Program-made: the position numbers and the translations under genes | Assembly: GCA_025782575.1 (NCBI GenBank) | Contig: JALGYY010000035.1 | Span: forward strand, 340,670-404,669 | Direction of reading: 5' to 3' | Length of the DNA stretch: 64,000 nt | From: a bacterium | Lineage (GTDB): Bacteria; Orphanbacterota; Orphanbacteria; Orphanbacterales; Orphanbacteraceae | Part shown: positions 30,076-63,342 of the stretch, one piece after another | Layout of the letters: every line of letters begins with the position of its first letter | How positions within the stretch are numbered: the stretch's first letter is position 1 | Notes under the pieces: generated by a model | What the model saw: the letters and a program-made list of their open reading frames with translations, nothing else | Database searches by the model: none | Told to the model about the DNA's origin: nothing

Positions 30076-30113
30076 GCCACTCGCCCCCCTCGATCAAACG
30101 AAGCGCGCATCGA

Positions 30114-47097: not shown

Positions 47098-50058
47098 CTA
47101 CTTCACAAGCAACATCTTTTTCGTTTCGGAAAACTCGCCACTCGTCAATTTATAGAAGTAGACCCCCGATGAGACTGGCTTACCTTTCAAATCCGTCCCG
47201 TCCCACGCTGTCTCGTAGCGGCCCGCTTTCTGCGTTCCGTCAATCAGGGTCCGGACACGGCGACCACCTACATTGAAAACTTCCATAGTGACCCGCCCTT
47301 CCCTGGGAATGGCATAGGCGATACGGGTAGTAGGATTGAACGGATTGGGATGGTTCCCGTCAAGTGAGTACGCTCTCGGCGCCAACCCTGCAATTTCGTC
47401 GGCCGACCCGCCGATTCCGGTCGCGATACCAGGACGGACGAATCGGAACTCATCGACTCCGGCGTGAATTCTTGTGGGCGCCCCGGTATCCCGGGCTACG
47501 AATCGAAACTGCACACTGTCGATTGTGCCGAACATCGCGCCGAGATCGAGTTCGACTTCGACCCAGGATTCCGTTCCCGTTTCAACGTGTTCGATCTCGG
47601 TCCAGCTTGAACCGCCGTCCACACTGACAACCGGATCCCACACTTCATCCAGGGTCTCCAGCGGGCCGTCGGCTCCGAAGTTATTGGAATACCAGCGGTG
47701 ATAGCGAGCCACAACGCCCGGCGATCCGCCCAATTGATAGAACGGAGAGTAGAGCGTGGTCTTCCCTTCCTTTACCTCGTTATTTGCACCTGTCGGACCG
47801 GTGAAGAAGCAGTTTATTCCGTCAGGCGTGACGTCGTCCTCCGGCCTTGTGGCCTTCATCACAGGGTCGCCGTTCGCCCAGATGCCTTTCGTGGCATCGT
47901 CAGTCGAGTCGCCGAGTGTCCACCCGCCTACGCTCTCACAAGGATCGTAGATGAAGACCACGTCGTACCAGTGGTTGTTTGCCGGGGCGTTAGGAGGACT
48001 CCAGTTCACATGGAACACCGAATCCGCTGCTTCGACATAGTACTGTACCCGAGAGCCCTGAACCTGCGCCGGGATCGAAGCGTCGTATTCATCAGGATTC
48101 GCCGTAGCGGTCATCGAAACGGACGAAAAAACGCCTCCGTCCACGTTGTAGTAGAGCGTGACCGATGAAGGATCGATCCCCCCGCTCAATCCCTCGACAA
48201 GCGCGGTAACCGTGCGTGCGCTCAGCGTGTCGGTGGTCGAAGGAAGGCCGGCGTGAGTGATCTGGACACCGGCGGAAATCACAGGAACAGTAAACCCGAT
48301 TTCCTCGGCCGCCCCTGCGAATTCGACGAAATTGGGAGTCCCCGTGTCGAGATCGCCATCATTGTCATCATAGATAAACGTCCACGTTACCTGATCCTGG
48401 ACGTTAGAAGGTATTCCGGCCGAACGGCTCTGCTGCCAGATGATCGGGAGGAGCGAGTCTGTAAATGTTTCGCCATAGGAGGTGATCATCCGGTTCCGGG
48501 TCTCCCAGAAGTACGCTGAAATCGCCTGGCCGTCATGATGGCCTGAGCCGTTATTGTCATCCGGGAATACGTAGCCCATGCTTGCGCTACGGATCCCGTG
48601 GTTGCAGGCCCCGTTAGTGAAACCGATGCCGAGGGTGGGCCGCTTCAAAAGGAGCAAGCTGATCACATCGGAGTTGCCTTCGCTCTGGGCACTGCTGAAA
48701 GGGTTTCCGGAATAGGTCCACTGAGAAATTCCGTGGCCGTACTCATGGTAGATCACGTCACCCAGCAAGGCCGTGTTTGCGAACGATGGCGATCCGAGAC
48801 AGTAGTTCGTGGAGGCACCGTCCCACCAGGCATTACCAGGGCAGAATCCGTCGGTCCTCTCCAGATTGACTGTCATTTTGAAGTCATCGGCTGTCATGGC
48901 CGGATCGATTTCCTGCAACTTGTCGCGCACAACCCAGTGGTGGTACCAGGCGTCTCTTTCCGCCGCTCGTGAGTTGCTGTCGTCCCAGTAGAAATCAGCC
49001 ACCTCTTCGACGAGAAGATCGATCGTATCACCGGAGATGGGAGGGCCGTTGGCGATCGTCTGAATGAACCTCGGACCGTTGAAACGGATGTCCACCGTCA
49101 CGCTGCCGGTCTCAGCTGTCGTAAAACTCCAGAGGCCGTCATCAGAAGTATTGGTACGCTGACCATCCGACAGATTGACGAACTGCTTCTTGAGGGGCAG
49201 ATTGTCCAGCGTTCCGCAGTAGTCCGGGTTATCGACATCAGCCCGAATCGATCCCGAAACCGTCGCCATTTCATATGTCTGCCGGCGAGCGTAGATCTCC
49301 CCGGTATTGGCATCGATCCAGTTCTCCCATCCGCCGAACGGATTGCTCATGTGGAGAATCACCTTCCAGGTGGGGCGATAGACGTAGCCGTCTCCCTCTT
49401 CCTGCGGGTAGATGAAGAGTTCAGGATCCTCTCGCATGAAGTCGAAATCATCCACGAATGACATGTCCCCTTTGGCGATCGCTACCGCCTCCTGCTCGGA
49501 GATCAGCCCTTCCACATCGGCTTCCATACCGGGATGAAAGTCCGACCCGATCGCAAAGATCCGGCCCGACTCGGTCATCACCACATGGGCACGACCGCCG
49601 TATACCCAGAGTCCTTCATATATCTCTCGAAATACGACCGACCACTTCCCATTCGTTCCGACCGTCCAGGGCTCGCCCAATCGGCCCGCACTCAGGTGAA
49701 GCAGGTCCTCGTTTTCAGTCAGGAATGTGCGCGCAATTTCTTCGGCCCTTGTCTTGTCGGCCACATGCTCGTTCACATAGTTGAACCCGCTTCCGAGGAT
49801 GTGGTGGGGAGTTCCCAGGATCGGATCCCGTTGGATGGCCCAGTTCCCACCGAAGCGATTCTTGAATTCCTGCAGGTCAGGATCGATCCGCTCTTCGCTA
49901 CGGACGAAGCGTTCGAACACCTTCTCCTGGATACCCGATTTGCCGAACTCGAGCGCCTGCTGGGATTCGGCCGGCCGGAATGCGGCCGATGGTGACACCA
50001 GGAGCGCCGACAGGCATAGAAATGCGAAAACTCTGCGATCTAGAGACATACACTCCAC
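47098..50058 (-). CDS. secreted zinc metalloprotease (HExxH; M4/M36-like with PepSY/FTP propeptide) carrying a T9SS C-terminal sorting domain
   Basis: Signal peptide, HEYGH zinc motif, and a C-terminal about 80 aa typical of the T9SS type-A CTD (NHPNPFNPTTRIAYAIP...SSGVYFYKLTSGEFSETKKMLLVK). Confidence 0.8.
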   Translation of the reverse strand: MECMSLDRRVFAFLCLSALLVSPSAAFRPAESQQALEFGKSGIQEKVFERFVRSEERIDPDLQEFKNRFGGNWAIQRDPILGTPHHILGSGFNYVNEHVADKTRAEEIARTFLTENEDLLHLSAGRLGEPWTVGTNGKWSVVFREIYEGLWVYGGRAHVVMTESGRIFAIGSDFHPGMEADVEGLISEQEAVAIAKGDMSFVDDFDFMREDPELFIYPQEEGDGYVYRPTWKVILHMSNPFGGWENWIDANTGEIYARRQTYEMATVSGSIRADVDNPDYCGTLDNLPLKKQFVNLSDGQRTNTSDDGLWSFTTAETGSVTVDIRFNGPRFIQTIANGPPISGDTIDLLVEEVADFYWDDSNSRAAERDAWYHHWVVRDKLQEIDPAMTADDFKMTVNLERTDGFCPGNAWWDGASTNYCLGSPSFANTALLGDVIYHEYGHGISQWTYSGNPFSSAQSEGNSDVISLLLLKRPTLGIGFTNGACNHGIRSASMGYVFPDDNNGSGHHDGQAISAYFWETRNRMITSYGETFTDSLLPIIWQQSRSAGIPSNVQDQVTWTFIYDDNDGDLDTGTPNFVEFAGAAEEIGFTVPVISAGVQITHAGLPSTTDTLSARTVTALVEGLSGGIDPSSVTLYYNVDGGVFSSVSMTATANPDEYDASIPAQVQGSRVQYYVEAADSVFHVNWSPPNAPANNHWYDVVFIYDPCESVGGWTLGDSTDDATKGIWANGDPVMKATRPEDDVTPDGINCFFTGPTGANNEVKEGKTTLYSPFYQLGGSPGVVARYHRWYSNNFGADGPLETLDEVWDPVVSVDGGSSWTEIEHVETGTESWVEVELDLGAMFGTIDSVQFRFVARDTGAPTRIHAGVDEFRFVRPGIATGIGGSADEIAGLAPRAYSLDGNHPNPFNPTTRIAYAIPREGRVTMEVFNVGGRRVRTLIDGTQKAGRYETAWDGTDLKGKPVSSGVYFYKLTSGEFSETKKMLLVK

Positions 50059-50214: not shown

Positions 50215-51876
50215 TCAATCACCCAGGTAACCGAGGGCCTTCAGCCTCTCCAGGGCGGCAGGGTCGATTTCAACTGTATCAACTTCTACTGACCCGATCC
50301 CCGCTATCTCGGCCATCTTGAGGTCGAGTATCTTTTTGTGGATCGCGGCCTCCGCCGCCCTTTCGTACAAGAGGTTCTTTGTCTCACCCGGATCCTCGGT
50401 GAGATCGAAATAGAGATCGCCCGGGTCGATCTGGCCCTCGAAATTGATCACTCGAATGTACTTTCTATCTTTGGTCCGGATGCCGCGAATATCGTACGGC
50501 CCATATCGCTGCAGAAGCTCTTCATGGTAAGCAATGCGCTCCGGCCCGTCGTTGTTGCCGTAGACAAGGGGGAGCGCACTCCGGCCCCGGGCCGTTTCGT
50601 CGGGCTCCAGTCCGAGATACTCGAGAACGGTCGGGACGATATCTACACTGGAAACCACATCATCGATCTCCTGACCGGTCCGCCCCATAGGCGGGAATCG
50701 GACGGGAGAGGGAATCGAAAGCACCATCGGCACGTGAACGGAACCTTCATAGATGATCTTGTTGTGCCCCCAGAAACCGTGTTCCCAGAACTCCTCTCCA
50801 TGGTCGGAAGTGTAGATGACAAGCGTGTTTTCCCACTCGCCCCGCGTTTCAAGCGCGGAAACAAGCTTGCGCAGTTCGGAATCCCAGTAGGCGATCGCGC
50901 CGTCGTATTGGGCCAGAAGATTTTGGAGTACCCGTTGCTCGGGCTTGCCGAGTTCATGCTTCCAATCCGAAACAGGCGCTTGGTCCCACTCCGGATCGAA
51001 CAGTTTCTGGTAAGCAGGAGGCGGCTCATACGGATTGTGAGGATCGATATAGAAAAGAAAACCGAAGAGGGGTCGATCTTCCTCTCTTCCGTCAATCCAG
51101 TTCAGGAACTTACCGTTCACACGGCCGGCCGGAGTGTGGGCCCAGTTCGGGTCATGTTCGAACTTGTCGAAACCCTGTGAGTATCCCTGCCGTGGTCCCA
51201 GGTGGGGATTGGTGGCGTAGCCATAGGTCTGATAGCCGGCATCGCTCAGGTATTCGGATAAGAGGGTGAATCGACTGGAAAGCACGTTCGAATAGCTCAC
51301 GATGCCATGCTGACTCGGATAAACGGATGCGAGGATACAGGGCGTGGAAACGATGGTGTGCGTCCCCTGTGAAACACCGTTCGTAAAGACGACAAGTTCG
51401 TCCCGCTGAGAGTCGAGATAGGGTGTGGTTTCGACCTGATATCCATAGAGGGACAGATGATCCGCTCTGGTAGCATCGGTGACAAGTAGAAGGACGTTCG
51501 GCTCCCCTCGCGTGTTCATGGGGACGAGAATCGCGAAGAGGATACCGGTAGCCAGGAGGCTCGTCCCGTAGGCGATCCCCCTGCTCCGGAACAACCGGTT
51601 CCCGGCAATCACAGCTGGAATTCCGACAAGGAACCCGAGTCCGAGGAACGCTGCCCAGAACACTTTCATCTGGTCAGGAGCCAGGCCGCCGTATGGAATG
51701 GCCATGATCTGCCATAATGCCGCTGCCGCGCCTATGACGATCCCGATCCCCCCCCCGATCAGGGGATTCGCCTTCTCGACCGGAGGGAAGTCCTCCAGAT
51801 CCTCCTCAAGATGATCCACCAAACCATCCTCCCTTGACCGGCGTCCGACTACAGAAACGGGAACATGGTAGCACAA
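50215..51876 (-). CDS. membrane-anchored sulfatase-family hydrolase/transferase (alkaline-phosphatase superfamily)
   Basis: Three N-terminal TM helices then a sulfatase core (LLLVTDATRADHL, SQHG). TTG start, uncertain. Confidence 0.7.
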   Translation of the reverse strand: MCYHVPVSVVGRRSREDGLVDHLEEDLEDFPPVEKANPLIGGGIGIVIGAAAALWQIMAIPYGGLAPDQMKVFWAAFLGLGFLVGIPAVIAGNRLFRSRGIAYGTSLLATGILFAILVPMNTRGEPNVLLLVTDATRADHLSLYGYQVETTPYLDSQRDELVVFTNGVSQGTHTIVSTPCILASVYPSQHGIVSYSNVLSSRFTLLSEYLSDAGYQTYGYATNPHLGPRQGYSQGFDKFEHDPNWAHTPAGRVNGKFLNWIDGREEDRPLFGFLFYIDPHNPYEPPPAYQKLFDPEWDQAPVSDWKHELGKPEQRVLQNLLAQYDGAIAYWDSELRKLVSALETRGEWENTLVIYTSDHGEEFWEHGFWGHNKIIYEGSVHVPMVLSIPSPVRFPPMGRTGQEIDDVVSSVDIVPTVLEYLGLEPDETARGRSALPLVYGNNDGPERIAYHEELLQRYGPYDIRGIRTKDRKYIRVINFEGQIDPGDLYFDLTEDPGETKNLLYERAAEAAIHKKILDLKMAEIAGIGSVEVDTVEIDPAALERLKALGYLGD

Positions 51877-51934: not shown

Positions 51935-52744
51935 TCAATACTGTCCGAGAGTACCGTCCCGTCTCGCCCGGTTAATGGCGAAACGAGCGGCGAGAATGCC
52001 TACGAAGAGGGCCACGACCGTAAACGCTATGAGTGAGAGCAGCTCTCTTTGCAGGCTCCCGAGACCGTGACCGCTCAGAAGAGACATGCGCATCCCTTCG
52101 AGCGAATAGGTGAGTGGAATGAATTTCGCAGCATCCTGGAGCCAGTCCGGAAGTACGGTGAGCGGAAAATAGACACCCCCGAGAAGACGGCTGAGAGAAG
52201 TGAAAATCCAGTTCACCGGGTTGCCCCGTTTCATGACCAGAATAAAACTCGCAGCCAGAATGCCGAGGGAAGAAAATGAAACGACGGTCAGGGAGAGAAA
52301 GATCAGTGCCACCGGAATATTCGGATTAGTGAGGCGGAGATCGAAGAAGAGAACACCGACAATGAGATAGAGAACGATCTGGAAGGAGGCCCAGATGAAA
52401 CTCCACATCGATGATGATATCAGATAGGTGGAAAATCGCGTCGGTGTGGAGAGAACCGCCTCGAGCGTGCCGAGCACCTGCTCCTCTCGAATCCGGGCGG
52501 AGAACGAATTCAGTCCCGTGGAGAGGTAGTTGGAGACAGCGACGCCGATCAGCACGAACGAGAAGTAATCGCCGCCATATTTCTCCAGGTAGGGATTCAT
52601 TGTCGTATCTATCAACTGCGCGAGAAAATAGAACATGGTCAGCGTGAGCGCGACAGCAAGAAACTGCATCACAAACGCGAGGCGATAGCTCGAAGCTACG
52701 ACGAGATCTTTCCAGAGAAATGCATACGGTTTGCTCCGATTCAT
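51935..52744 (-). CDS. ABC-2 type exporter permease
   Basis: Six-TM ABC-2 permease. ATGA overlap with the ATPase gene. Confidence 0.8.
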   Translation of the reverse strand: MNRSKPYAFLWKDLVVASSYRLAFVMQFLAVALTLTMFYFLAQLIDTTMNPYLEKYGGDYFSFVLIGVAVSNYLSTGLNSFSARIREEQVLGTLEAVLSTPTRFSTYLISSSMWSFIWASFQIVLYLIVGVLFFDLRLTNPNIPVALIFLSLTVVSFSSLGILAASFILVMKRGNPVNWIFTSLSRLLGGVYFPLTVLPDWLQDAAKFIPLTYSLEGMRMSLLSGHGLGSLQRELLSLIAFTVVALFVGILAARFAINRARRDGTLGQY

Positions 52745-53739
52745 TCCTCCACCTTCCTCGAGTACCGCTTGTAGATTTCCTCGAGAGACCCTCGTTCGAT
52801 CTCAAGCCGGCGCATTGTTCCATAGCGACCGCTGAGGGCATGAATCAGACTCTCGGGACTGACATCAGGGCGGCCGAACCGGAGTTCGCAGCGGCCGATA
52901 CCAGGACCGGTCGGAATCAGTTCCAGATTCTCGAGATCCGGAAGGCTTCGGAGCGGCTCGAACCACCCCTCATCAGGATCCGTAACTTCGATACAGACCT
53001 CCAGATGGATCTCGAACTGCTCGACTACCTCATCCGGAGTTCCCGCCGCCAGCACGTGACCCTGATGGAGAAAAACGAGCTTGTCCGAGATTCGATCAAC
53101 AGCGCCGAGATCATGGCTCGCCAACAGAATGGCGCATCCCTCCTCATGGGCGAGATGGCGCAACCGATCTAAAAACAGTGAGCAGGTGTAGGGGTCGAGA
53201 CCTCTCGTCGGCTCATCGAGAATCATGATGGGCTGGCTGCCGATCAGAGCTCTTACTACCGATAACTTCTGCTTCGTCCCGGTGGAATATGTCATGAATC
53301 GAGAATCGATCTCCCGGATCTGAAGCAGCTCCGCCAGTTCGTCGATTCCCTGTCGAATCGTTTTTTCGTCTATGCCTCGGAGTTTCCCGAAGAATCGGAG
53401 ATTCTGGCGGCCGGTCAGGCGGTAATAGAAGCTCCGTTCCTCGGCCATGCAGATACCCAGGCGACTTCTGGTATAGAGGCTGTCCCGGACCGTATCCCGT
53501 CCGTCCACGAGTGCCTCGCCTTCGCCGGGCAGGATGAGCGAGGCGAGGATTTTGAGAGCGGTCGACTTGCCGGAACCGTTCGGGCCTAGCAGGGCTACGA
53601 TTTCGCCCGGGTCGACATGGAAGCTGACATTCTCGAGAGCCTGAATCGATTCCCTCCGAAAGGGATTGCGGAAGAGCGCATCCAGACCACGCTTCACCGG
53701 ATAAGCTTTCGATACCGACTTCAATTCGATGGCGTGCAA
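52741..53739 (-). CDS. ABC transporter ATP-binding protein
   Basis: Walker A GPNGSGKST, signature YSTGTKQK, Walker B MILDEP. TTG start after GGAGGA. Confidence 0.9.
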   Translation of the reverse strand: MHAIELKSVSKAYPVKRGLDALFRNPFRRESIQALENVSFHVDPGEIVALLGPNGSGKSTALKILASLILPGEGEALVDGRDTVRDSLYTRSRLGICMAEERSFYYRLTGRQNLRFFGKLRGIDEKTIRQGIDELAELLQIREIDSRFMTYSTGTKQKLSVVRALIGSQPIMILDEPTRGLDPYTCSLFLDRLRHLAHEEGCAILLASHDLGAVDRISDKLVFLHQGHVLAAGTPDEVVEQFEIHLEVCIEVTDPDEGWFEPLRSLPDLENLELIPTGPGIGRCELRFGRPDVSPESLIHALSGRYGTMRRLEIERGSLEEIYKRYSRKVEE

Positions 53740-53771: not shown

Positions 53772-54956
53772 TCAGTGAAGACGCCGGAACGGGGAGACTA
53801 TCAGATTCGAAATGACGTCGATCAAAGAAATAAAGCCGGACAAATGTCGCCTGACACGACGTGACACGGGGATCGGCTCTTCCTTCGTATAGTAGAGTTC
53901 GGCGCTATAAGCTTCATCCGGAAAGACAAGCCTCCAGGCGAAGTCGGATAGCTTGTGATCACCGAAGTACGCGGAAGACCAGATTCGGAATCGGAGTTCG
54001 CGGCCCGACGAAATGGGAAAGAAGTCAGACCCGCGATAACGGGATGCGAATCGCTCCACCCGGGACGGCATGGTGGTGTCGTAACGGGGATCACCCCAGA
54101 AGCGGCGGAGAAAGAGGAGCGCCGCCTGCGTCTCCTCTCGCATGCCCCACAATTCGGCGTGCCGGATCACATGATCCGCCGTAATGGAAGGTTGAGCATG
54201 AAAGAGTCTATCGAGATCGACGAGTCGCTTCAGAGATAAATAGTGAGACATGCGCAGACTTGCCATTACATAGACGATCTCATCGAGAGGGGCGAGAAGT
54301 TCGATCGGCGATCCGCCTAAACTTCCCTCGATACGCCGACGGAACAATTTCGACGTATCGACCCGAAGGCTGAACGGATTGTGGAGCAGATTCCAGTGGA
54401 GTTCCACTACGTCGACTGTCTTTCTTCGCCTGACATAGACGACATGAAAGTGATGGCGCCGGTAGAAGCCCCTTGAGTGCACGAGTTCGAAGAGCGCGTA
54501 GCCGAGTGATTCAAGAAGGCGCTCGGCTGTGGCGAGCTGCTCCGGAGGCACGAGCAGATCAAGATCGCGCACATCACGCAGCGAGGAATCGCCGTAGTTT
54601 CGCTCGGCCAGCGGGAGACCCTTCAGAACCAGACAGTGGACCTCCCCCTTCCGAAAGTGCCCGAGAACTTCCTTCAATTCATGTTCTCGAAGAAGGGATC
54701 GAACGATGCTCTTCTCCGATTCGTTCAGGAGACGGTCGACGAGACTGGGCGGTGCGAGTTCGCGCAGCCAATCCGTCTTCAGAATGGCAGAGGCTGCGAG
54801 AGGGACGATCTTAGTAGAGAACAAGAGTTCCTCGAAGCGGTCCCAGACGAACCATCGAGAATCGGCGATGATGGCCCCGATTCTCGTCCGATCGAGTTCC
54901 ACTCGGAGCACTTCCCTGACAAGGTCCATTTCAGAAGACAGACGGACACCGTTCAT
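53772..54956 (-). CDS. nucleotidyltransferase-family protein (PF14907/NTP_transf_5-like), RiPP-associated
   Basis: 394 aa with nucleotidyltransferase-fold motifs (GS..LRDVRDLDLLV). ATGA overlap with the B2-like gene stop. Confidence 0.65.
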   Translation of the reverse strand: MNGVRLSSEMDLVREVLRVELDRTRIGAIIADSRWFVWDRFEELLFSTKIVPLAASAILKTDWLRELAPPSLVDRLLNESEKSIVRSLLREHELKEVLGHFRKGEVHCLVLKGLPLAERNYGDSSLRDVRDLDLLVPPEQLATAERLLESLGYALFELVHSRGFYRRHHFHVVYVRRRKTVDVVELHWNLLHNPFSLRVDTSKLFRRRIEGSLGGSPIELLAPLDEIVYVMASLRMSHYLSLKRLVDLDRLFHAQPSITADHVIRHAELWGMREETQAALLFLRRFWGDPRYDTTMPSRVERFASRYRGSDFFPISSGRELRFRIWSSAYFGDHKLSDFAWRLVFPDEAYSAELYYTKEEPIPVSRRVRRHLSGFISLIDVISNLIVSPFRRLH

Positions 54957-55477
54957 TCCTTCCGCCCCCGATCCCGGGCAAAATAGGCGCTGTGATCAGC
55001 GTCACCCCCTATCGCTCCGTTTCTAGGGAGCGAAAACAGGGAAACGAACTTCGCGATGTCTTCATCGGTCTCCAGAAAAGGCTTTCCTTCGAGGGTGAGC
55101 CAGGAGTGTCCCTCCCATCCCTCTTCCCGGGGATCGACGCCGAAAGAGACCCGGACCGGTACGCCGCTCCGGCGGAAGAGATGGGAGAGCAGCAGGCACC
55201 GGCGAAGGCAGGTGCGTTTGAACGGGAAGAGAGGGGAGCGCAACAGCTTCTCGGTAAGGGCGTAGGAAATAGCCGCGCCTTCGATGTGGGGCTCCACTCC
55301 TTCGGGTAAGCCGGTTGTGGGAAAGAGGCTCTCCACCGGCCTCCAGGGGAGAAGCAGAAAAAGACGAATCGCTGTGAGGGTCGACCTGAGAATATGCCAG
55401 AAATTTGGCGGCCGAAGGAGTACATGCCCAGGGAGCGAGTACTCGACGATCGCTCTTTCCAGGTGAGGCACTTCCAT
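54953..55477 (-). CDS. lasso-peptide B2-like transglutaminase-fold cysteine peptidase
   Basis: Cys-His-Asp triad context: CLRRCLLLSHLFRRSGVPVRVSFGV...GHSWLTLEGKPF...ETD. Confidence 0.7.
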   Translation of the reverse strand: MEVPHLERAIVEYSLPGHVLLRPPNFWHILRSTLTAIRLFLLLPWRPVESLFPTTGLPEGVEPHIEGAAISYALTEKLLRSPLFPFKRTCLRRCLLLSHLFRRSGVPVRVSFGVDPREEGWEGHSWLTLEGKPFLETDEDIAKFVSLFSLPRNGAIGGDADHSAYFARDRGRKE

Positions 55478-55503: not shown

Positions 55504-56466
55504 CTAGAGCAGGTCCTCGCGGATCCGATCAGCCAGCGACCGGGCATCCCCCCCGAAGAGGAGCCGGTAAGGCTGTACGCCATCTACCATTTCGCCTAGT
55601 ACGTCGATGTGATTCTGAACGAGCTCTTTCGCGGCAGGCAACACCGATTGCGGAATGAGCCTGATCAGCGCTTCCTCTTTCGTCACCGGTTCGAATGTCG
55701 TCCGGGGCTCCGTCACGACTTCAGGAAAAAGAAGCAGACTAGGTGCCACGCCGCCTCTTCTTCCCCCGCCGGGAAGGTCGGCCTCCTCCAATATAAGTTT
55801 TCCCATCTCCGAGGTGAAGCGTTTCCCCCACTCGGGGAAGAACCTTTGGGATCCTCTGCCGATTTTGACCGGCTCCGGGAACGCATCCATGACAATCCCT
55901 TCATCGGATCTTGAAAGAAACAGAGTGTCGTCGGAAATGAGCGGACATCCCGACATGATCGCGGAGAGCGCGGAGGTGGACTTCCCGGAACCGCTCATTC
56001 CGCTCACAACCACGCCCCGCTGATCGACCAGGAAGCCGGCGCCATGCAATGGGAAATGTCCTCGCTTTCGCATCCATTCAATCAGGGGAAGATAAAAGAG
56101 CCTGTGCCCGATGATCCATGAATTGGATTCATGGTCCGGATGAACGAGACACTCCACCGTACCGCTCTCCAGGTCGCACCGAGCAAGAGAACGTTTCTCG
56201 ACGACAATCAAAAGCTCGCCATCTTCGTCGTGTATGGTGAAGTCTCGAGCTGCGGAGAAAGAGAGGGGCTCACTGCGAGGCATGGCCGGCCGGCCGACTT
56301 CCTGCTGAAGGCGAAATTGATAGTGGAGGTCTGGCTCTCGACCGATGATATCGACCTCGAGCAGAGCGGCTGCGCGAAGAACCGATGCACGCACCGCTCG
56401 ACTCGGGCAGTCCACCTCGATCGTCTGATCGAGCAGCGCCAGACTGATCCTGTCCGGTCTGCTCAT
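55504..56466 (-). CDS. HPr kinase/phosphorylase C-terminal-domain-like kinase (HprK-related, RiPP-associated)
   Basis: P-loop GMSGSGKST in an HprK_C-like context (HGAGFLVDQRGVVVSGMSGSGKSTSALS...SDD). 2-nt gap to the PqqD gene stop. Confidence 0.75.
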   Translation of the reverse strand: MSRPDRISLALLDQTIEVDCPSRAVRASVLRAAALLEVDIIGREPDLHYQFRLQQEVGRPAMPRSEPLSFSAARDFTIHDEDGELLIVVEKRSLARCDLESGTVECLVHPDHESNSWIIGHRLFYLPLIEWMRKRGHFPLHGAGFLVDQRGVVVSGMSGSGKSTSALSAIMSGCPLISDDTLFLSRSDEGIVMDAFPEPVKIGRGSQRFFPEWGKRFTSEMGKLILEEADLPGGGRRGGVAPSLLLFPEVVTEPRTTFEPVTKEEALIRLIPQSVLPAAKELVQNHIDVLGEMVDGVQPYRLLFGGDARSLADRIREDLL

Positions 56467-56468: not shown

Positions 56469-56750
56469 CTAGTCGCTGATTGTGACGAGGCCGTCTTCCG
56501 CCAACCGCTCGGCCAATTCAATGCAGTCCGTAAGGGCGATCGACTCTTCCACGTCAAATGAACCGGCGAGCCGGCGGGCGATTTCGCGTACTGACCTCGT
56601 ACCATCAATCGCTTCCCATATGAACCGGCCGGTGCTGTTCAAGCTGAAGTAATAGCCACTTTTCAGATCGACGAGAATGCCTTTTCCATCCACGCTGCGG
56701 GAGGGGGCATCCGGTGATTGGGTCAATATGGTACCCTCTGAAATTGACAA
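56469..56750 (-). CDS. PqqD-family RiPP recognition element (lasso B1-like peptide chaperone)
   Basis: 93 aa. PqqD pattern GKGILVDLKSGYYFSLNSTGRFIWEAIDGTRSVREIARRLAGSFDV. TTG start 8 nt after AAGGGGG. Confidence 0.75.
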   Translation of the reverse strand: MSISEGTILTQSPDAPSRSVDGKGILVDLKSGYYFSLNSTGRFIWEAIDGTRSVREIARRLAGSFDVEESIALTDCIELAERLAEDGLVTISD

Positions 56751-56788
56751 TCTCTTACCCCCTTTTCATCCGCAGAGAGTCTGTCTCC

Positions 56789-56823
56789 AAAAAAAAGATG
56801 GGAAGGCAACGCCTTCCCATCTC
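56789..56823 (-). terminator. strong intrinsic terminator/attenuator between precursor genes and the PqqD gene
   Basis: Minus-strand hairpin GATGGGAAGGC-gtt-GCCTTCCCATC followed by TTTTTTTT. Confidence 0.6.
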
Positions 56824-56847
56824 TCACAATCGTTCGAATTTCGAAAA

Positions 56848-56979
56848 TCAGCCGCCGTCAACCGGATCGTGCAACTGCGTTTCAATAGCGGGAATGTGAA
56901 CCCTGGCAGTTGAAACAAGCGTGATTTCCCTGAGATTGTCATGCCGAATGATCTCAGGTGTTTCGTACGCTATTTTCAT
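56848..56979 (-). CDS. candidate RiPP precursor peptide A2 (43 aa: MKIAYETPEIIRHDNLREITLVSTARVHIPAIETQLHDPVDGG)
   Basis: Not in the ORF track (<60 aa). Start ATG overlaps the A1 stop (ATATGA). Shares the first ~27 residues with A1, then diverges. Confidence 0.5.
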   Translation of the reverse strand: MKIAYETPEIIRHDNLREITLVSTARVHIPAIETQLHDPVDGG

Positions 56980-57098
56980 ATCCGAGCTTCTTCATGCTCC
57001 AGCACATCGGGCTCAACCCGAGGGGTGGAGACGAGAGTAATCTCGCGAATGCTCTCATGCCGCACGATTACAGGCTTTTCGTAGATTTCAACCTTCAT
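56976..57098 (-). CDS. candidate RiPP precursor peptide A1 (40 aa: MKVEIYEKPVIVRHESIREITLVSTPRVEPDVLEHEEARI)
   Basis: Short ORF first in the minus-strand cluster. YxxPxI and T-containing leader-like motifs. Paralogue of A2. Confidence 0.5.
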   Translation of the reverse strand: MKVEIYEKPVIVRHESIREITLVSTPRVEPDVLEHEEARI

Positions 57099-57414
57099 TG
57101 GCCTAGAACGCTCCCATGTGGTCTTTCGCTACTCTGTTAGCAGTACTCCATGAGAATAATAGACCCTTCCAGGAAAGGTGTCAATAACTAATTGTAAAAT
57201 AGCAAGTTGTGAGGCAAAGGACACATTCGGGGCACTATTTGGCCGATACACTCTTTAATAGCGGCGTGGCTGGGCCCTCGAGAAGCTCATTCGGGCTGAA
57301 TTACCGCCGTTCTGGCCTGCCGCGCCCCCAAAGCCCCCATCGGGAGAGCCCAAGCGCACCAGACGGTCTCAGTACAGGCCCTGTCAGTGGCTCCTGAGCC
57401 TATCAGCATCTCTC

Positions 57415-57969
57415 CTAGATTCTACCCGCTCGATGGATCCCATACCAGTAGAAAGCGGCCACCACCAGAGCGTGGGCGATTTCGCCCCCTTCCATCATCT
57501 TGAGGACCTCAGATTCCGGCCTCAGGATGACCTCGATCTCCTCTCCAGGATCCAGACTCATTTTTGAACTCGGAGAAGCGCCCTCAGCCAGGTAAGTGTG
57601 GCACCGGTTCGTCTGGAATGCCGGATTCGGCTCAACTACTCCCAGCGGGACCCAGCTTCTCGCCTCGTATCCCGTTTCTTCTCTCAATTCGCGGCGAGCA
57701 GCCTCTTCCGGCGAGGAGTCTCTGGCATCCACTCCCCCCCCCGGAATTTCGAGAGTGTACTCTCTGGTACCGTGCCGGAACTGGCGGACCAGCAGGATTT
57801 CCCCAGCATCCGTCCTGGCGATCACATTGACCCAGTCCACAGTCTCCATAACAGTGAATTCTCTTTGAAAGCCGGTGGAAGGTGAAACCGAGCGGTCAAG
57901 GCGGACTGAAAAAATTGCGAAATCGCCCGCATGCCGCGACTGAAGCCGGGTCCATTTCTCGTCCATCAC
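57415..57969 (-). CDS. NUDIX hydrolase
   Basis: Nudix box GGGVDARDSSPEEAARRELREETG. Confidence 0.75.
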   Translation of the reverse strand: MMDEKWTRLQSRHAGDFAIFSVRLDRSVSPSTGFQREFTVMETVDWVNVIARTDAGEILLVRQFRHGTREYTLEIPGGGVDARDSSPEEAARRELREETGYEARSWVPLGVVEPNPAFQTNRCHTYLAEGASPSSKMSLDPGEEIEVILRPESEVLKMMEGGEIAHALVVAAFYWYGIHRAGRI

Positions 57970-58128
57970 ATCCTCCGATCAAACGGCAGTATAGCCTGCA
58001 GGGAATTGCCCCGCAACTCCGGGAAGTGTCCCGAATTGACTTCGTCGATCTCGTCGGTTATGGTCCTTATGAGTCACTTAATTGCTTTTCTCATAAACGG
58101 TTTCAGAATACCCCATCGAGAGGACGCC

Positions 58129-58884
58129 ATGTCCGCCAAGCCCCGGAGGTTTCTCGCTGGCGCGGTCCCCCCTTTTCTGATCGTGCCGATCAAAGAAGGG
58201 ACCTCCCAGTCGAATCAGATTGATGAAGCCCAGTACCTCTGGAAAGATTGTAATATGCCCGCTTTTGATACTTGGGAAGCGGCCGCCGCTTTCTCCAGAA
58301 AAGAGTGGCGGAAGAAAACGAGATTTCTCATCTTGAACGGCCCTGCACTGATCGATGACCGTGTACCGATCTACGGCGAGAACGGAGCCTATACCATCGA
58401 GGGTGACGTCCACCGTCGCTACGCCCTGAACCTGAATCAACAGACCCGCCGTCAGATCAGTGCCGGGGGAGTTGTCCGGTGTATGGGAAAAGACGGCCCC
58501 ATGCACGCGCTGATTCAGGTCAAGCGGAAAGGAACCCTTCGATGGGAAGTCCCGAAGGGAAAAATCAAACGACATGAAAGGCTCCGCGATGCCGCAATCC
58601 GGGAAGTGCGGGAAGAGACGGGATTGCAGTCTCCTGTTCACGCACTCGAAGCTCTCGGCCGCGTCGATTACCTGTTCCTTGCCGATGATCGACACCTCTA
58701 CTTCAAGAGCGTCCATTATTATCTGCTGGAAACGGAGAACGCCGACCCTCTCACACCCCGCGCAGAAGAGGGCATTACTGACGCACGCTGGTTTCCCGTC
58801 GAAAATGCATGGGAAATCGTGTCATTTCCGAATCTCAGGCCCATCCTCCGGCGGGCGGCAGATCGGGGAGACCTGACCAAGTAG
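58129..58884 (+). CDS. NUDIX hydrolase with N-terminal extension
   Basis: Nudix box (KGKIKRHERLRDAAIREVREETG). Start set at the ATG after GAGAGGA. The longer ORF from 57931 would overlap the opposite-strand gene. Confidence 0.65.
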   Translation: MSAKPRRFLAGAVPPFLIVPIKEGTSQSNQIDEAQYLWKDCNMPAFDTWEAAAAFSRKEWRKKTRFLILNGPALIDDRVPIYGENGAYTIEGDVHRRYALNLNQQTRRQISAGGVVRCMGKDGPMHALIQVKRKGTLRWEVPKGKIKRHERLRDAAIREVREETGLQSPVHALEALGRVDYLFLADDRHLYFKSVHYYLLETENADPLTPRAEEGITDARWFPVENAWEIVSFPNLRPILRRAADRGDLTK

Positions 58885-58897: not shown

Positions 58898-60019
58898 GTG
58901 CGCGTCACCATGTTCCTCTTCCATACGTTCCAGAATGATCACCGTGTATTGAAAGAAGCCCGGACGCTCATCGCTGCCGGGTATGAAGTGACGCTGATCG
59001 CGCTCAGGGAGAATGATGACTTCCCGCCGGTTCGGGTCGAGTCGGGCATTCATGTGCGTCGCCTTCGGATGCACCGCTGGCCCTTCCGGAAGGGGCGATA
59101 TCTCGAGTACTTCGCCCGCGCCGCCGTCGCCGCGTTTCGCCAGGACGCCGACGTTTACCACTGCCATGATCTGGACACACTCCTGCCGGGATTCTTAGCA
59201 GCCGCCCTCCGTGGCAAACCTGTAATATACGACTCTCACGAACTTTTCACCGAAACACACTTTCTGATCGGAAGATCCAAAGAGAGATTGATGTGGAGTA
59301 TAATCGAGCGGATCTTCATCCGGTTCACGTCTCGCGTGATCACGGTCTCGGAACCGATCGCCGTAGAACTGGCCCGGCGATACGGAATTGAGAAGCCGGT
59401 CTTGCTGCGAAACCTCCCCCGGTTCATGCCCCCCCCTGAACCCGATCCCTTCTTTCCAGAAGACGAGCGGCGCCCGCTCTTCATCTGTCAGGGGTACATG
59501 CAAGAAGGCCGGGGCCTTGAGACGCTTATCCGGGCAATGGCCGAGGTGCCTGACGGCCGGCTCATTCTTCTTGGAGACGGTGAAATATCTGAAAAGCTGC
59601 AGGACCTGATTCTGAAGCAAAGCCTGGAACACAGGGTCAAGCTGCTCCCCGCAGTCCCAATCAGGGAGCTCCCTTCCCGTACGGCAGACGCCGACTTCGG
59701 ACTTATTGCCTACCGGACTGACTCCCTGAATTTTCGGTACGCTCTGCCAAACAAGTTCTTCGAGTACATCATGGCCGGGGTACCGGTAATCACATCGGAC
59801 ATCCCGGAAGTGTCGCGCCTCGTTCGGGAATTCGACCTCGGGATTGTTGTAGACGATTGCACGCCGACCGGTTTCGCCTGCGCTATGCAGCAGATCGCAA
59901 CGGATCATCACCGCCGGAAACGATTCAAGGAAAACTGCCTGAAGAGCACACGCCTCCTGTGCTGGGAGACGGAAGAGACCAGATTACTTCAAGTCTATCA
60001 GGAACTGACCCCCCCCTAG
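58898..60019 (+). CDS. glycosyltransferase family 4 (GT-B, group 1)
   Basis: C-terminal GT1 motif (EYIMAGVPVITSD...E). GTG start after AGGGGAC. Confidence 0.8.
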   Translation: MRVTMFLFHTFQNDHRVLKEARTLIAAGYEVTLIALRENDDFPPVRVESGIHVRRLRMHRWPFRKGRYLEYFARAAVAAFRQDADVYHCHDLDTLLPGFLAAALRGKPVIYDSHELFTETHFLIGRSKERLMWSIIERIFIRFTSRVITVSEPIAVELARRYGIEKPVLLRNLPRFMPPPEPDPFFPEDERRPLFICQGYMQEGRGLETLIRAMAEVPDGRLILLGDGEISEKLQDLILKQSLEHRVKLLPAVPIRELPSRTADADFGLIAYRTDSLNFRYALPNKFFEYIMAGVPVITSDIPEVSRLVREFDLGIVVDDCTPTGFACAMQQIATDHHRRKRFKENCLKSTRLLCWETEETRLLQVYQELTPP

Positions 60020-60059: not shown

Positions 60060-60668
60060 TCAGATATATCGGAGTAGCCCAACTACCTTGCCGAGGATAC
60101 GGAACTCCCCGTCTGCCGGATCGATCTGGATCGGCTTCATTTTCTTGTTCGCCGGCCGAAGCTCGATCTCGCCATCTTGCTTGTGGAAGTACTTCACAGT
60201 CGCTTCGTCTCCGATCAACGCCGCAATAATCTCGCCGTTTCGAACCTCGGTAGTCGGACGAACCAGTATCATATCCCCATCCGAAATGTGGGCTTCCACC
60301 ATGCTCTCACCTCGGACGCGCAGCAGGAATTCCCCATCCCCCCGGAGAAACGAAGGGTCGATCATGAACGTGTCTTCAATGTTTTCCTCAGCAAGAGTAG
60401 GAACACCCGCGGCAATCCGGCCGAGGAGGGGTATGCCCTGATGATCCTCAGGTTCGATGTAGTTTAATTCCAGCGCCCGCGACTTACCCATTGCTCTCTT
60501 GATATATCCTTTCCGCTCAAGGGCATTCAAGTGATCCACAACGCCCTTCGTCGACCGAATTGAGAATCGGAAACCGATTTCCCGTATGGTTGGCGGGTAA
60601 CCGTATTCTTTATAATGCTGCACGAGATAATCATAGATCTCCCGCTGGCGGTCAGTCAGCCTCTTCAT
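60060..60668 (-). CDS. lexA: LexA repressor
   Basis: N-terminal winged HTH, cleavage-site Ala-Gly (RIAAGVP), and S24 peptidase Ser/Lys (GESM...KKM). Confidence 0.9.
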   Translation of the reverse strand: MKRLTDRQREIYDYLVQHYKEYGYPPTIREIGFRFSIRSTKGVVDHLNALERKGYIKRAMGKSRALELNYIEPEDHQGIPLLGRIAAGVPTLAEENIEDTFMIDPSFLRGDGEFLLRVRGESMVEAHISDGDMILVRPTTEVRNGEIIAALIGDEATVKYFHKQDGEIELRPANKKMKPIQIDPADGEFRILGKVVGLLRYI

Positions 60669-60705: not shown

Positions 60706-63342
60706 TCACGATCCTGTCGAACGGAAACCTAGAAGCGGAAGCGGAATCTGTTCATCCCGCCTTTGCGGTTTTCGGTCTCCCTCTTCTCCTCCTGCTCGTT
60801 TCTCTCGTTGTCTGGCTGTTGAAGCTCGTTTCAGCCCGCTACTCCGCCGGCCTGAACTTTCCGCGCGATCAAATGCCATCGCGATGCGCAAGAGAGCCGG
60901 TCTTGGAAACGGCCTGGAAGCCATACGCTCAAGAAATTCCCCGACTGACCGAAACGGTCCCCCGCATTCTCTTTCCTGCGTAATCAGATTCCCCAGATCG
61001 GCATCGATTCCAGGAACGATCGCAAACCCGTTCCTGATTCCTCCGTCAACCTCGGTGAACATATACTCGCTGCTGTTCTTGTCTACAGGAAGGAACGGGG
61101 TCCCCTCCTTTTGAAAGCCCTCGACCAACAGGTGAAGCCTTCTCCTGTCCCCCAGTGACCGATTCAAAATTCTCGCTGCAAAACCGTTGAGACTCCCCTG
61201 TTTCCTTGCACTCAATGTCTGGATCGCACCTGCCAGACGGAGCATGATTCCCCTCTCGGGGACGAGGGGTGTAACGGCACACAATATCGAGAATACTTTT
61301 TCTGCGAAACGGTCTCCTACTCCTCGATCCACCGATCGCCGGACGAAGAAGGACCGATCAGCTCTCAGTTCCGGACCCTCGCCGCATTTCATTCGGTTGA
61401 AGAGATCTTCCGCTTTGGCGTGTTCCACCTTTGTCATTCTGCGAATGATCTCTACTACCTGCTCACGATAGAAAGGGACGCCGTCGGTAACGGTTAGAAT
61501 CTTTTCAATACCGCCTCCCATGAGTGGAATCGGGGCGTTCCCTTTCCTGATCTTGATGATTCTACGGACAAGATCACCCCGTTTGGAGTCCAGACCGGCT
61601 GCGACGAGAAGGGCGATATCCTCCCGATTCCGAGGAGCCAGCATTCTTGCCAGCCGTCTATGCACCGGTCTTGCTGACGCCAGGATACCCGCCCAGTTCC
61701 CCTTTCCGAGAAGCGAATTTCCGTCATCCTCTTCCGGCAGATCATCCGTTGCCCGTAATGCTTCGTCCATCGACGATGCGCGGATTTCAAGATCCAAACC
61801 GGCGTTCATCTCCCAGCATGACTCCGGAGAGTCACACCAGATGAGCGACTCTTTCTCGGCCTGGTAGGTCATGATCGTGTCTCGCGACCAGGGTGGTGTC
61901 TGATTCACCAGTAGAGGGTCCGGAACTTGGTTTTCCCGGTAGTGGGGTTCGAATAGATTTTGGGTGGATCGATTCGATGTGGGTCCGGACCACTCTCCTG
62001 GTGACGATCGTACAATTCGATCGAGACGCTCTTGATCGGCCTGGCTGAGAAAGACCGGCCGAATTTCATGACTGATTGATTCCGCATACCTCTCACTCAT
62101 AACCCGCCTGAAATTGTCGACTGACTTACGGTCTCCGTCGATTACAAAACGCATCCTTCCCTGACCGGTTGGTGTTGAAGCCGACAACTTGTTCTCTTCG
62201 GGATCAATGCTCTGAAGACCGGTTAAATAGCCGAGGAGGCTACCGGATAGGTAGGTAGTCGAGATGCGCGCTCTCCGATCAATCTGTCTCACCAGCGCGA
62301 ACGCTTTCGAAATCTTCTGGACCGCCGGCAATAGTCCCTTGTCCTCATACCGCCAGTATTCAGTCCAGAATCGATTCCCGATCTCCTTCATCTTCCAATC
62401 CGGCTTGCCTTGATATTGCTTCTCGATTTCCGATTGGCATCTGCGAATGAGTTCATCTCCTTCGCTTGCGATCGTTGCCCGATGGACCCTGTCGTTCGCC
62501 GCCCCTCCGCACCGCTCGGCGATCTCTTCCGTCCGGTCGAGCGGTTGAGGGTCGTCTCGGTAACGCTCCTCCATTTCGTCACAGGAGGGCAGGTGCACCG
62601 CCCCTTCGACGACCAGCGGATCGGGGCTGTGAGTCCCCCCGCCGGGAGGGAGAATCGCCCTCAGTTCGGCAAGTCGGGGTCGATCTCCTTTGGTCAGGCA
62701 TCTGACCGGATCAGCCGCTACTCGATCGAGACCGAATCGACGCTCCAGTTTCCGAAGGAAGGGATCGACGAGGCTCTCATGTCGGCTGTTGGTACGGCTT
62801 ACTTCCAGATAAAAATGGGATGGTGTGAACAGTGATGCGAGAAGAGCGGCGGCACGTGATGCCTCGGCGATGAGGCCCTTTACCAGGGCGCCCGATACAG
62901 GGCCGGTCATCCCGCCGCTGAGAGCGATCAACCCCCTGCTGTACCGACCGATTTCATCGAGGTCGGCGATCCCCCTCCGGCGATCGATTCGCCCGGGGGA
63001 CCATATGAGACGAAGAAGCCTGTCCAGATTCCAACGGCCCCGCAGGTCCTCGCACAGAAGAGTGAGGGTGTACACACGCTCGGAAGAGAGGGATCCGCCT
63101 GCGGGGAATGCGACTTCTACTTCCGCCCCTTCGATCGGAGCTACATCTGATTCGTCAAAGGCGGAACGGGCCTGAACGAACCCGAATAGGACACCACGAT
63201 CGACTACGGCCCCTGCACGGATACCCCTCGCGGCCAGAGCCCCGGCCAGATCGACCGGATCGATCAGTGAGAGGACCGGCGAGAATTTGGTGTGCAGCCT
63301 TAGTGGCACGTAGCTCATAGCTTCCTCCATCGAGCTACACAA
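60706..63342 (-). CDS. DnaE-family polymerase-like protein, unusually short (878 aa; error-prone DnaE2/ImuC-like?)
   Basis: N-terminal PHP-like domain aligns with DnaE (LSGGMTG..FYLEVSRT..LA..GL..VAADPVR..LRAI, TEEIAERCG). A possible palm D-x-D (FVIDGD) is present. The C-terminal half is much shorter than in Pol III alpha. The gene sits immediately upstream of lexA. Confidence 0.5.
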   Translation of the reverse strand: MCSSMEEAMSYVPLRLHTKFSPVLSLIDPVDLAGALAARGIRAGAVVDRGVLFGFVQARSAFDESDVAPIEGAEVEVAFPAGGSLSSERVYTLTLLCEDLRGRWNLDRLLRLIWSPGRIDRRRGIADLDEIGRYSRGLIALSGGMTGPVSGALVKGLIAEASRAAALLASLFTPSHFYLEVSRTNSRHESLVDPFLRKLERRFGLDRVAADPVRCLTKGDRPRLAELRAILPPGGGTHSPDPLVVEGAVHLPSCDEMEERYRDDPQPLDRTEEIAERCGGAANDRVHRATIASEGDELIRRCQSEIEKQYQGKPDWKMKEIGNRFWTEYWRYEDKGLLPAVQKISKAFALVRQIDRRARISTTYLSGSLLGYLTGLQSIDPEENKLSASTPTGQGRMRFVIDGDRKSVDNFRRVMSERYAESISHEIRPVFLSQADQERLDRIVRSSPGEWSGPTSNRSTQNLFEPHYRENQVPDPLLVNQTPPWSRDTIMTYQAEKESLIWCDSPESCWEMNAGLDLEIRASSMDEALRATDDLPEEDDGNSLLGKGNWAGILASARPVHRRLARMLAPRNREDIALLVAAGLDSKRGDLVRRIIKIRKGNAPIPLMGGGIEKILTVTDGVPFYREQVVEIIRRMTKVEHAKAEDLFNRMKCGEGPELRADRSFFVRRSVDRGVGDRFAEKVFSILCAVTPLVPERGIMLRLAGAIQTLSARKQGSLNGFAARILNRSLGDRRRLHLLVEGFQKEGTPFLPVDKNSSEYMFTEVDGGIRNGFAIVPGIDADLGNLITQERECGGPFRSVGEFLERMASRPFPRPALLRIAMAFDRAESSGRRSSGLKRASTARQREKRAGGEEGDRKPQRRDEQIPLPLLGFRSTGS

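Follow-up and report, generated by a model that had tools for sequence, protein, structure and literature searches.

What do two short open reading frames (ORFs) at the head of an enzyme operon encode? The question is raised by positions 340,670 to 404,669 of contig JALGYY010000035.1, a stretch of 64,000 nucleotides (nt) referred to hereafter as the window, in which two such ORFs, A1 and A2, lie on the minus strand ahead of genes for a PqqD-family protein, a kinase related to HprK, a transglutaminase-like cysteine protease and a nucleotidyltransferase-fold enzyme. An earlier note on this DNA had taken them for precursors of a peptide made on the ribosome and modified after translation (RiPP), with a leader for the adjacent PqqD-type RiPP recognition element (RRE). 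This assignment is supported by a conserved motif register, by recurrence in eight syntenic loci and by coding-type substitutions, with binding of the leader predicted from sequence. We consider it likely that A1 and A2 are tandem precursors of a lasso-derived, cyclase-less RiPP pathway most probably giving linear phosphorylated peptides, which would resemble the linear polyphosphorylated peptides (LPPs) of Bacillota but depend on a lasso B2-type protease. The reading was built on the observed gene content, motif register, peptide conservation, hairpins, catalytic residues and absence of a cyclase from the sequence examined.

Both ORFs were found head-to-tail and exactly as previously described:

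56976–57098 (minus strand): candidate precursor peptide A1, 40 amino acids (aa), MKVEIYEKPVIVRHESIREITLVSTPRVEPDVLEHEEARI; leader MKVEIYEKPVIVRHESIREIT(L), invariant Ser24, tail TPRVEPDVLEHEEARI.
56848–56979 (minus strand): candidate precursor peptide A2, tandem paralogue of A1, 43 aa, MKIAYETPEIIRHDNLREITLVSTARVHIPAIETQLHDPVDGG; invariant Ser23.

The A1 stop and A2 start codons overlap in the shared letters ATGA (4 nt, 56976–56979), and a Shine-Dalgarno sequence, GGGAG, lies upstream of A1. The ORFs had also been called unannotated, which is not wholly so, as both occur as unnamed gene products in an NCBI record. Overall identity between A1 and A2 is 49%; almost all of their 19 invariant columns fall in residues 1–28. 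Within a conserved block of 23 codons, they differ at 5, 3 and 15 sites of codon positions 1, 2 and 3, respectively, with nine synonymous codon changes. Because of this distribution, the sequences indicate that the duplication is old and that selection maintains both copies. Among the loci examined, tandem duplication of the precursor gene was found in the window only.

Relatives were collected by several routes. A word-indexed search with A1 and A2 returned only these two peptides and, after addition of the peptides from related loci L003 and L004, one further peptide. The kinase provided five homologues at 42–53% identity; a genome scan with the single kinase sequence found nothing, and alignment-based kinase scans yielded five genome loci and three metagenome loci. 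The related loci come from metagenome-assembled genomes (MAGs) labelled Candidatus Eisenbacteria or Gemmatimonadetes and have a common gene order (NUDIX, PqqD, kinase, B2, NTP_transf_5, ABC, ABC-2, sulfatase). Six-frame searches with a hidden Markov model (HMM) of the family, which retrieved A1 with E = 4.9e-12, detected homologous peptide genes in L003, L004, L011, L006 and L008, in each case between NUDIX and PqqD. An exhaustive HMMER search with the peptide profile against 1.84 billion representative proteins, in which A1 scored 78 bits, gave 16 proteins with E ≤ 0.001, all of 34–52 aa. The resulting family comprises 20 peptides of 34–52 aa, some from metagenome loci of the Candidatus Eisenbacteria type and others from elsewhere. 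A peptide gene is found directly upstream of PqqD-ScmC-Transglut_core3-NTP_transf_5-ABC in eight distinct syntenic loci. Database peptides P0013 and P0018 each sit ahead of the same operon, and P0019 adjoins an ABC-2 permease gene. The divergent member P0023 has a different arrangement, between an ABC ATPase gene and a convergent NTP_transf_5 gene, and the contig of P0024 is too short to show gene context. P0021 is WP_324896167.1 from Paenibacillus, named by NCBI a "lasso RiPP family leader peptide-containing protein".

All 20 peptides share a 19-residue block, Y-[EV]-[KTR]-P-x-[LIVM]-x-[KR]-[HQ]-x-x-[LI]-[KR]-x-[IV]-T-[LM]-x-S, with no variation at Y, P, T or S. In the window as in every peptide-bearing locus, the minimal pattern Y..P.[VILM].{9}T..S occurs at the peptide genes only; chance would give 0.165 matches per shuffled window. 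Across the 23-codon block of seven peptide genes from six loci, codon positions 1, 2 and 3 differ 136, 111 and 298 times, with 173 synonymous and 184 non-synonymous codon differences summed over all pairs. Since third-position changes dominate, the substitution pattern indicates that the peptides are under selection at the protein level. That the ORFs arose by chance was ruled out by the family E-values together with this codon-position pattern.

A shared N-terminal block had already been noticed, with an end near residue 27. The block is real, but family-wide conservation stops earlier, at the Ser of Y-x-x-P-x-[LIVM]-x(9)-T-x-x-S (Ser24 in A1, Ser23 in A2), and the T-x-R-V identity of A1 and A2 beyond it is common only to their nearest relatives. 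The part thereafter, previously termed a hypervariable core, is indeed variable, except that 8 of the 20 peptides have a second motif, [LMV][FY][IV]G[DEK][DE] (e.g. ELFIGDE), the distance of which from the invariant Ser varies. It is absent from A1 and A2 and is carried by P0012, P0015, P0020 and the following:

L003, 1211–1336: peptide with second motif.
L004, 1152–1277: peptide with second motif.
L011, 1650–1781: peptide with second motif.
L006, 4617–4748: peptide with second motif.
L008, 5441–5590: peptide with second motif.

C-termini vary across the family and are rarely Ser; that of the L008 peptide is GGGGS, and neither A1 nor A2 has a C-terminal Ser, as stated before. The P0019 core, SRSRGGCSTCRGDEDDDDDD, contains a Cys pair and poly-Asp, and the cores of P0023 and the Paenibacillus peptide P0021 are rich in Gly, Lys and Asn, similarly to the LppA core.

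The enzymes that would act on these peptides are encoded on the minus strand in a compact operon, several genes of which overlap by 4 nt:

56469–56750 (minus strand): discrete RRE, a lasso B1-type PqqD protein of 93 aa (Pfam PqqD, 3.7e-17).
55504–56466 (minus strand): HprK/ScmC-like peptide kinase, 320 aa (Hpr_kinase_C, 8.4e-6; HprK_rel_B, 2.9e-11; PF27840 ScmC).
54953–55477 (minus strand): lasso B2-type transglutaminase-like cysteine protease, 174 aa, presumed leader peptidase (Transglut_core3, 9.4e-12).
53772–54956 (minus strand): NTP_transf_5 nucleotidyltransferase-fold enzyme, 394 aa, counterpart of PsmN/LppN (PF14907, 3.1e-43).
51935–53739 (minus strand): two-gene ABC-2 type exporter (ATPase, 52741–53739, ABC_tran 3.1e-27; permease, 51935–52744, ABC2_membrane 1.8e-15).
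50215–51876 (minus strand): membrane-anchored sulfatase/alkaline-phosphatase-superfamily protein, 553 aa, possibly belonging to the operon (Sulfatase, 3.8e-49).

With the RRE family profile, the PDB entries matched were PbaB1 (9x90, 40 bits), TbiB1 (39 bits), TfuB1 (32 bits) and LppB (9x8z, 23 bits); scores against the NCBIfam lasso_PqqD models were below their cutoffs (42 versus 80 bits). Its invariant Asp75 aligns with D70 of LppB and with the Asp of TbiB1 and TfuB1 that hydrogen-bonds the leader Tyr, whereas the Trp-reading PbaB1 has Gln at this position. In the kinase, the P-loop GxSGxGKST and the DD motif align with those of HprK/P (1jb1), and an alignment of six homologues shows no change in either. 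The B2 protein scores 41.5 bits with NF033537 lasso_biosyn_B2 (cutoff 33 bits), and its Cys90, His124 and Glu136 (His+12) are likewise invariant in six aligned homologues. NTP_transf_5 has the invariant signature G113...D131-x-D133. Sequence searches found no solved relative of the B2 protein, nor of NTP_transf_5 with either the single sequence or an eight-sequence profile. The ABC-2 exporter occupies the same position in L001, L002, L011 and L015.

Whether such an operon makes a lasso peptide was considered next to the leaders and cores. Residues Y6/P9/I11/T21 of A1 and Y5/P8/I10/T20 of A2 have the spacing of lasso Y-17/P-14/L-12/T-2 and are invariant in all 20 peptides, so the lasso-like leader (YxxPxI plus a conserved Thr) pointed out in the earlier note holds, in a register that matches both lasso and LPP motifs. 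True lasso precursors, with the cyclase (C protein) encoded elsewhere in the genome, would account for this canonical register, for the lasso-type B1 and B2 proteins and for a B2 score above the NCBIfam cutoff. They would also suit the Glu at core position 7 and Asp at 9 of A1 (cores being counted from the residue after T-x) and the passing of the 19-bit cutoff of NF033521 lasso_leader_L3 by three relatives (P0013, 23.4 bits; P0024, 22.5; P0021, 19.8) over the YEKPE..H..LKE block. The sequence covered is, moreover, 64 kb of the contig. A1 and A2 gave no match to NF033521, which describes a leader type and not a pathway outcome; A2 scored 16.6 bits with NF033528, below its cutoff of 33 bits.

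A Pfam scan of 39 window ORFs, including every ORF of at least 450 aa, found no lasso cyclase (Asn-synthetase homologue, PF00733/TIGR01536), and none was present among the called genes of L001, L002, L011, L015, L022 and L023 (up to 17 kb per locus). The cores also argue against ring closure: 12 of 20 (A2 and 11 others) lack Asp/Glu at positions 7–9, those of P0021, P0022 and P0023 are entirely free of acidic residues, and that of P0016 has only 8 residues (range in the family, 8–27). Gly is the most usual residue at position 1 of lasso cores; here, the position is V, L, T, F, S or A, never Gly. In the Bacillota data set, B2 and cyclase travel together, with Transglut_core3 (39 neighbourhoods) tracking TIGR01536 (43) and the B2 proteins deriving from adjacent true lasso clusters (PMC13381572), whereas here B2 is consistently alone. 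The cluster thus has a leader of the YxxPxL/Thr-2 type, a B1 RRE and a B2 protease but lacks the cyclase and, in 12 of the 20 cores, the ring-closing Asp/Glu at positions 7–9. A true lasso peptide was therefore rejected, on the absence of a cyclase from the sequence examined and on the incompetence of most cores for ring closure, and we regard it as highly improbable. Without a lasso cyclase in the cluster, the product is probably linear.

Linear products of a related kind were first described in May 2026 as LPPs (lppA-K-B-S-D-N) in Bacillota, to which they were reported to be restricted (Popov et al., Nat Commun 2026; PMC13381572). Their clusters encode one to three short precursors with a conserved N-terminus, a variable C-terminus and the motif YxxPxVLxHQxIxFETxxS, as well as a discrete RRE, an exporter and a nucleoside-triphosphate (NTP) transferase, with no cyclase; precursors reach 200 aa, and the LppA core has 45 aa (PMC13381572). 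The only site polyphosphorylated by the HprK-like kinase is core Ser3, with which the motif ends, and the family is defined by LppS, a peptidase like signal peptidase I (SpI; archaeal type) that reads F-3/E-2/T-1 and cuts after T-1 (PMC13381572). The LppA leader, rebuilt from published primers, is MEENTKREQKLYARPMVLSQQPVRFET/AQSWNKGKGN. The register shared with the present family comprises Y-16, P-13, hydrophobic residues at -11/-10, H-8, Q/E-7, I/L-5, T-1 and S+3, and A1, with YEKPVIVRHESIREITLVS, fits the LPP consensus at Y, P, V/I, L/V, H, Q/E, I, T and S and departs from it at F-3/E-2. The strict pattern common to LPPs and A1 had no matches in 200 window shuffles. A search of the PDB with the peptide profile gave no match, and the crystallised LppA leader chain was not retrieved. 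Both systems further have an HprK-like kinase, an NTP_transf_5 enzyme, an exporter and a discrete RRE in which the Tyr-binding Asp is kept, and both lack a macrolactam cyclase.

The two systems differ in their peptidases. At positions -3/-2, the A1/A2 family has [ETSD]-[IV] in place of the F-3/E-2 recognised by LppS, which fits a different peptidase. Neither the operon nor the other window ORFs scanned include an S26/SpI-type signal peptidase; LexA, with its DNA-binding domain, is the one S24 protein. The B2 cysteine protease takes the operon place of LppS and is accompanied by no cyclase and no SpI peptidase. In addition, the exporter is a two-gene ABC-2 type, in contrast to the MsbA-like exporter of LPPs, and the host belongs to a candidate phylum (Eiseniibacteriota-type MAGs) and not to Bacillota. 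Membership of the LPPs as defined was rejected for want of an SpI peptidase. Judged from its sequence, the A1/A2 system thus lacks both the peptidase that defines LPPs and the cyclase that defines lasso peptides.

Similar parts are found in other known systems. Paeninodin/pseudomycoidin-type lasso clusters consist of A, K, C, B1, B2, N and D. In these, the linear precursor is phosphorylated on its C-terminal Ser by the kinase, and the phosphate then receives a hexose from PsmN. They share with the present operon the discrete B1 RRE, B2 Cys protease, HprK-like kinase, NTP_transf_5, ABC exporter and YxxPxL...T leader type, but here there is no lasso cyclase, and most cores lack Asp/Glu at 7–9. 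Moreover, paeninodin-type leaders have WxxP and their RREs Gln, whereas the leader here has Tyr and the RRE Asp. The cassettes described by Haft as TIGRFAMs (HPr-rel-A, TIGR04352; HprK_rel_B, TIGR04355; SynChlorMet ScmC/ScmD) likewise combine an HprK-like P-loop protein with a PqqD-family peptide chaperone. The kinase matches TIGR04355, TIGR04352 and TIGR04249, and the RRE matches TIGR04248 (ScmD), all far below the curated cutoffs (e.g. 43 versus 200 bits); in contrast to those cassettes, the A1/A2 operon has no radical SAM/SPASM partner. Literature searches on cyclase-less B2 clusters (by Pfam accessions, and by Eisenbacteria plus lasso) found nothing, and those on ScmC/SynChlorMet returned unrelated acronyms only.

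These comparisons bear on which residue is modified. The earlier note had proposed several Ser/Thr as modification sites. The candidates narrow to the single invariant Ser (S24 in A1, S23 in A2), since T25 varies among relatives and T21 more probably serves in recognition by the peptidase. The Ser is in the same register as the mapped LPP phospho-acceptor and is, besides the recognition Thr, the only invariant hydroxyl in 20 of 20 peptides. A1 and A2 might nevertheless be precursors for this enzyme set with chemistry unlike that of LPPs, in which the kinase acts on Thr21, Thr25 or a C-terminal position, NTP_transf_5 nucleotidylates or glycosylates, or the sulfatase-like enzyme performs the defining step. 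This would agree with the C-terminal Ser targeted by known lasso-cluster HprK-like kinases and the GGGGS end of the L008 peptide, with the lasso-type rather than LPP-type RRE and B2, with the second conserved core motif in 8 of the 20 peptides, and with the sulfatase-family gene that always follows the exporter. The single invariant hydroxyl in the LPP acceptor register, together with C-termini that are not conserved and rarely Ser, makes such chemistry unlikely in our estimation.

The arrangement ahead of the enzyme genes suggests how precursor and enzyme levels could be set:

57156–57184 (minus strand): predicted sigma-70-type promoter TTGACA-17-TATTAT upstream of A1, with 11 of 12 consensus matches.
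~57110–57150 (minus strand): short stem-loop in the 5' untranslated region (UTR) of the peptide gene; counterparts at ~1175–1195 in L003, ~1620–1640 in L011 and ~4585–4605 in L006.
56789–56822 (minus strand): intrinsic-terminator-like hairpin plus T8, between A2 and the RRE gene.

TTGAC[AG] and TATxxT boxes were found, equally placed, in five of the six loci compared upstream (window, L003, L004, L011 and L006; not L008). The 5' UTR stem-loop (e.g. GGAGAGGTAGTTCTCC) lies between the -10 box and the Shine-Dalgarno sequence and may be an mRNA-stabilising hairpin. The hairpin after A2 had been described as perfect and followed by T8, which is correct; its stem has 12 bp, however, not 11 bp (AGATGGGAAGGC/GCCTTCCCATCT, 56822–56796, loop GTT, T-run to 56789). 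It folds with an energy of -27.5 to -31 kcal/mol (z, -3.95 to -4.84), a stability reached by 0 of 200 shuffled sequences. A simple terminator scan missed it, probably since the stem can extend into the T-run, and Rfam matched no family over 56600–57450. A GC-rich hairpin plus U-run separates the peptide and RRE genes in all eight distinct syntenic peptide-bearing loci (z, -2.0 to -4.8), with stem sequences that differ among loci. As no promoter-like site was found between hairpin and RRE gene, expression of the enzymes presumably needs read-through past the hairpin, by analogy with other RiPP operons, of which the mccA terminator of microcin C is an example. The terminator-like element that the earlier note linked to a high precursor:enzyme stoichiometry is kept in 8 of 8 loci, with its read-through role proposed by analogy.

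The same layout of short ORFs, strong terminator hairpin and operon could instead belong to regulatory leader peptides (upstream ORFs), the translation of which controls termination at the hairpin (attenuation) and which are not enzyme substrates; that the operon can exist without them in peptide-less loci would suit this role. The amino-acid conservation tracks the RRE-binding motif and not regulatory codons, a ribosome terminating at the stop codon, ~25 nt ahead of the stem, would be too distant to mask the stem, and the same family occurs beside NTP_transf_5/ABC genes in another arrangement without a hairpin. We give an exclusively regulatory role very little credence; attenuation and precursor roles are not mutually exclusive.

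Several points weigh against the interpretation of A1 and A2 as substrates of an LPP-like, B2-dependent pathway. Six syntenic loci with intact-looking enzymes (5–8 kb of flank each) have no promoter, peptide gene or hairpin, so that enzymes can evidently persist without a linked precursor. The earlier note had named the absence of the ORFs from orthologous loci as telling against its reading, and this is in part what was found, with six loci lacking the peptide gene and eight distinct syntenic loci carrying it. Confidence in an obligatory link between peptide and enzymes is lowered by these six loci. The RRE is closer to lasso B1 proteins (PbaB1, 40 bits) than to LppB (23 bits), for which reason the similarity to LPPs could be convergent. 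The acceptor of paeninodin, pseudomycoidin, ThcoK and SyanK is a C-terminal Ser, absent from A1 and A2, and among characterised kinases only that of LPPs acts near the core N-terminus (PMC13381572). In the only test of an LPP NTP-transferase, LppN was inactive (PMC13381572). A cyclase may be encoded elsewhere in the genome, the window being 64 kb of a 599,540-bp contig, and phosphorylation, cleavage site and linearity are all argued from analogy.

The peptide-less loci form two clades of the kinase tree (L001/L002 (= L010)/L009 and L007/L012/L013). In them, NUDIX abuts PqqD (e.g. L001, 7644–7702), and the missing promoter-peptide-terminator cassette measures ~660 bp in the window. Neither narrow and broad six-frame HMM searches nor regular-expression searches found a diverged precursor in these loci, the substrate of which may be encoded elsewhere in their genomes. 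Since close relatives differ in having or lacking the cassette, one may ask how RiPP enzymes are retained when no substrate gene is linked to them.

Under the preferred reading of a B2-dependent pathway to linear phosphorylated peptides, we infer the following chemistry, order of steps, cleavage site and read-through control by analogy with LPPs, paeninodin and pseudomycoidin. A strong promoter would transcribe A1-A2, and the hairpin plus T8 would end most transcripts, with read-through yielding the enzymes and, hence, a high precursor:enzyme ratio. The discrete RRE (B1) would bind the Y-x-x-P-x-I segment of the leader, and the HprK/ScmC-like kinase would phosphorylate, possibly repeatedly, Ser24 of A1 or Ser23 of A2, three residues past the invariant Thr. 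The B2 cysteine protease, with the substrate presented by B1, would remove the leader beside Thr21 (A1) or Thr20 (A2); in A1, the lasso Thr(-2) rule, if it applies, would place the cut after Leu22. The phosphate could be further decorated by NTP_transf_5, as its homologue PsmN transfers a hexose onto phospho-Ser, and the ABC-2 transporter would export the product.

The sulfatase-family gene comes directly after the ABC-2 exporter in every full-length locus (L001, 12534–14144; L002, 12597–14207; L015, 7314–8933), and its product has weak matches to phosphoethanolamine transferases. It is possibly part of the operon, synteny within one lineage being weak evidence, and the protein might have an extracellular action on a phospho-linked product. 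In all related loci, the operon is flanked by genes for two NUDIX hydrolases (one NudE-like) and a family 4 glycosyltransferase (GT4); the first of the NUDIX genes is on the same strand as the operon and directly upstream:

57415–57969 (minus strand): NUDIX hydrolase.
57931–58884 (plus strand): NUDIX hydrolase.
58898–60019 (plus strand): GT4 glycosyltransferase.

These genes might provide or control a nucleotide-linked donor for NTP_transf_5, or their presence may reflect mere lineage synteny. Farther out, LexA (60060–60668, minus strand) adjoins an 878-aa DnaE2-like protein with PHP, DNA_pol3-finger and HHH_6 domains (60706–63342, minus strand), a pair resembling an SOS-mutagenesis cassette and kept in L001, L002 and L022. 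In L017, two extra small ORFs of 97 and 48 aa (3878–4171 and 4371–4517, plus strand) lie between LexA and NUDIX; they gave no match to the precursor family and are not homologous to it. Downstream of the sulfatase gene, the window, L001 and L002 encode a 986-aa secreted protein with an HEYGH zincin motif and a C-terminal FlgD_ig/Por_Secre_tail (type IX secretion-type sorting domain; 47098–50058, minus strand, in the window). Elsewhere, the window contains a three-gene set of PrkA, DUF444 and SpoVR (27451–32150, minus strand; stress module of the yeaG-yeaH-ycgB type), with several sigma-54 activators and sigma-70-family factors flanking it elsewhere in the window.

More speculatively, and in our view rather unlikely, the operon could represent a RiPP class of its own that spans phyla and forms a "missing link" from lasso peptides to LPPs, with B1 and B2 kept for leader removal in the absence of a cyclase and with a mobile precursor cassette. 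The invariant Ser next to the cleavage site would be phosphorylated and then made by NTP_transf_5 into a phosphodiester-linked adduct, and the sulfatase-family enzyme would act on this linkage outside the cell. In such a class, that enzyme might, for instance, attach the peptide to a polymer of the envelope or unmask it during export, and the promoter-peptide-terminator module would be present, absent or duplicated between close relatives.

What is new here is the presence of LPP-like precursor logic and the accompanying tailoring set in an uncultured candidate phylum, wired to lasso B1/B2 proteins and with no cyclase. If the reading of A1 and A2 as precursors of linear phosphorylated peptides is true, the LPP-type class would be broader and older than reported and would extend beyond Bacillota. 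The locus would then provide an intermediate, or a second independent loss of the cyclase, for tracing the origin of LPPs from lasso pathways, and its short cores of 17–22 residues, which are easy to synthesise, would be suited to studying the kinase and the still-uncharacterised NTP_transf_5.

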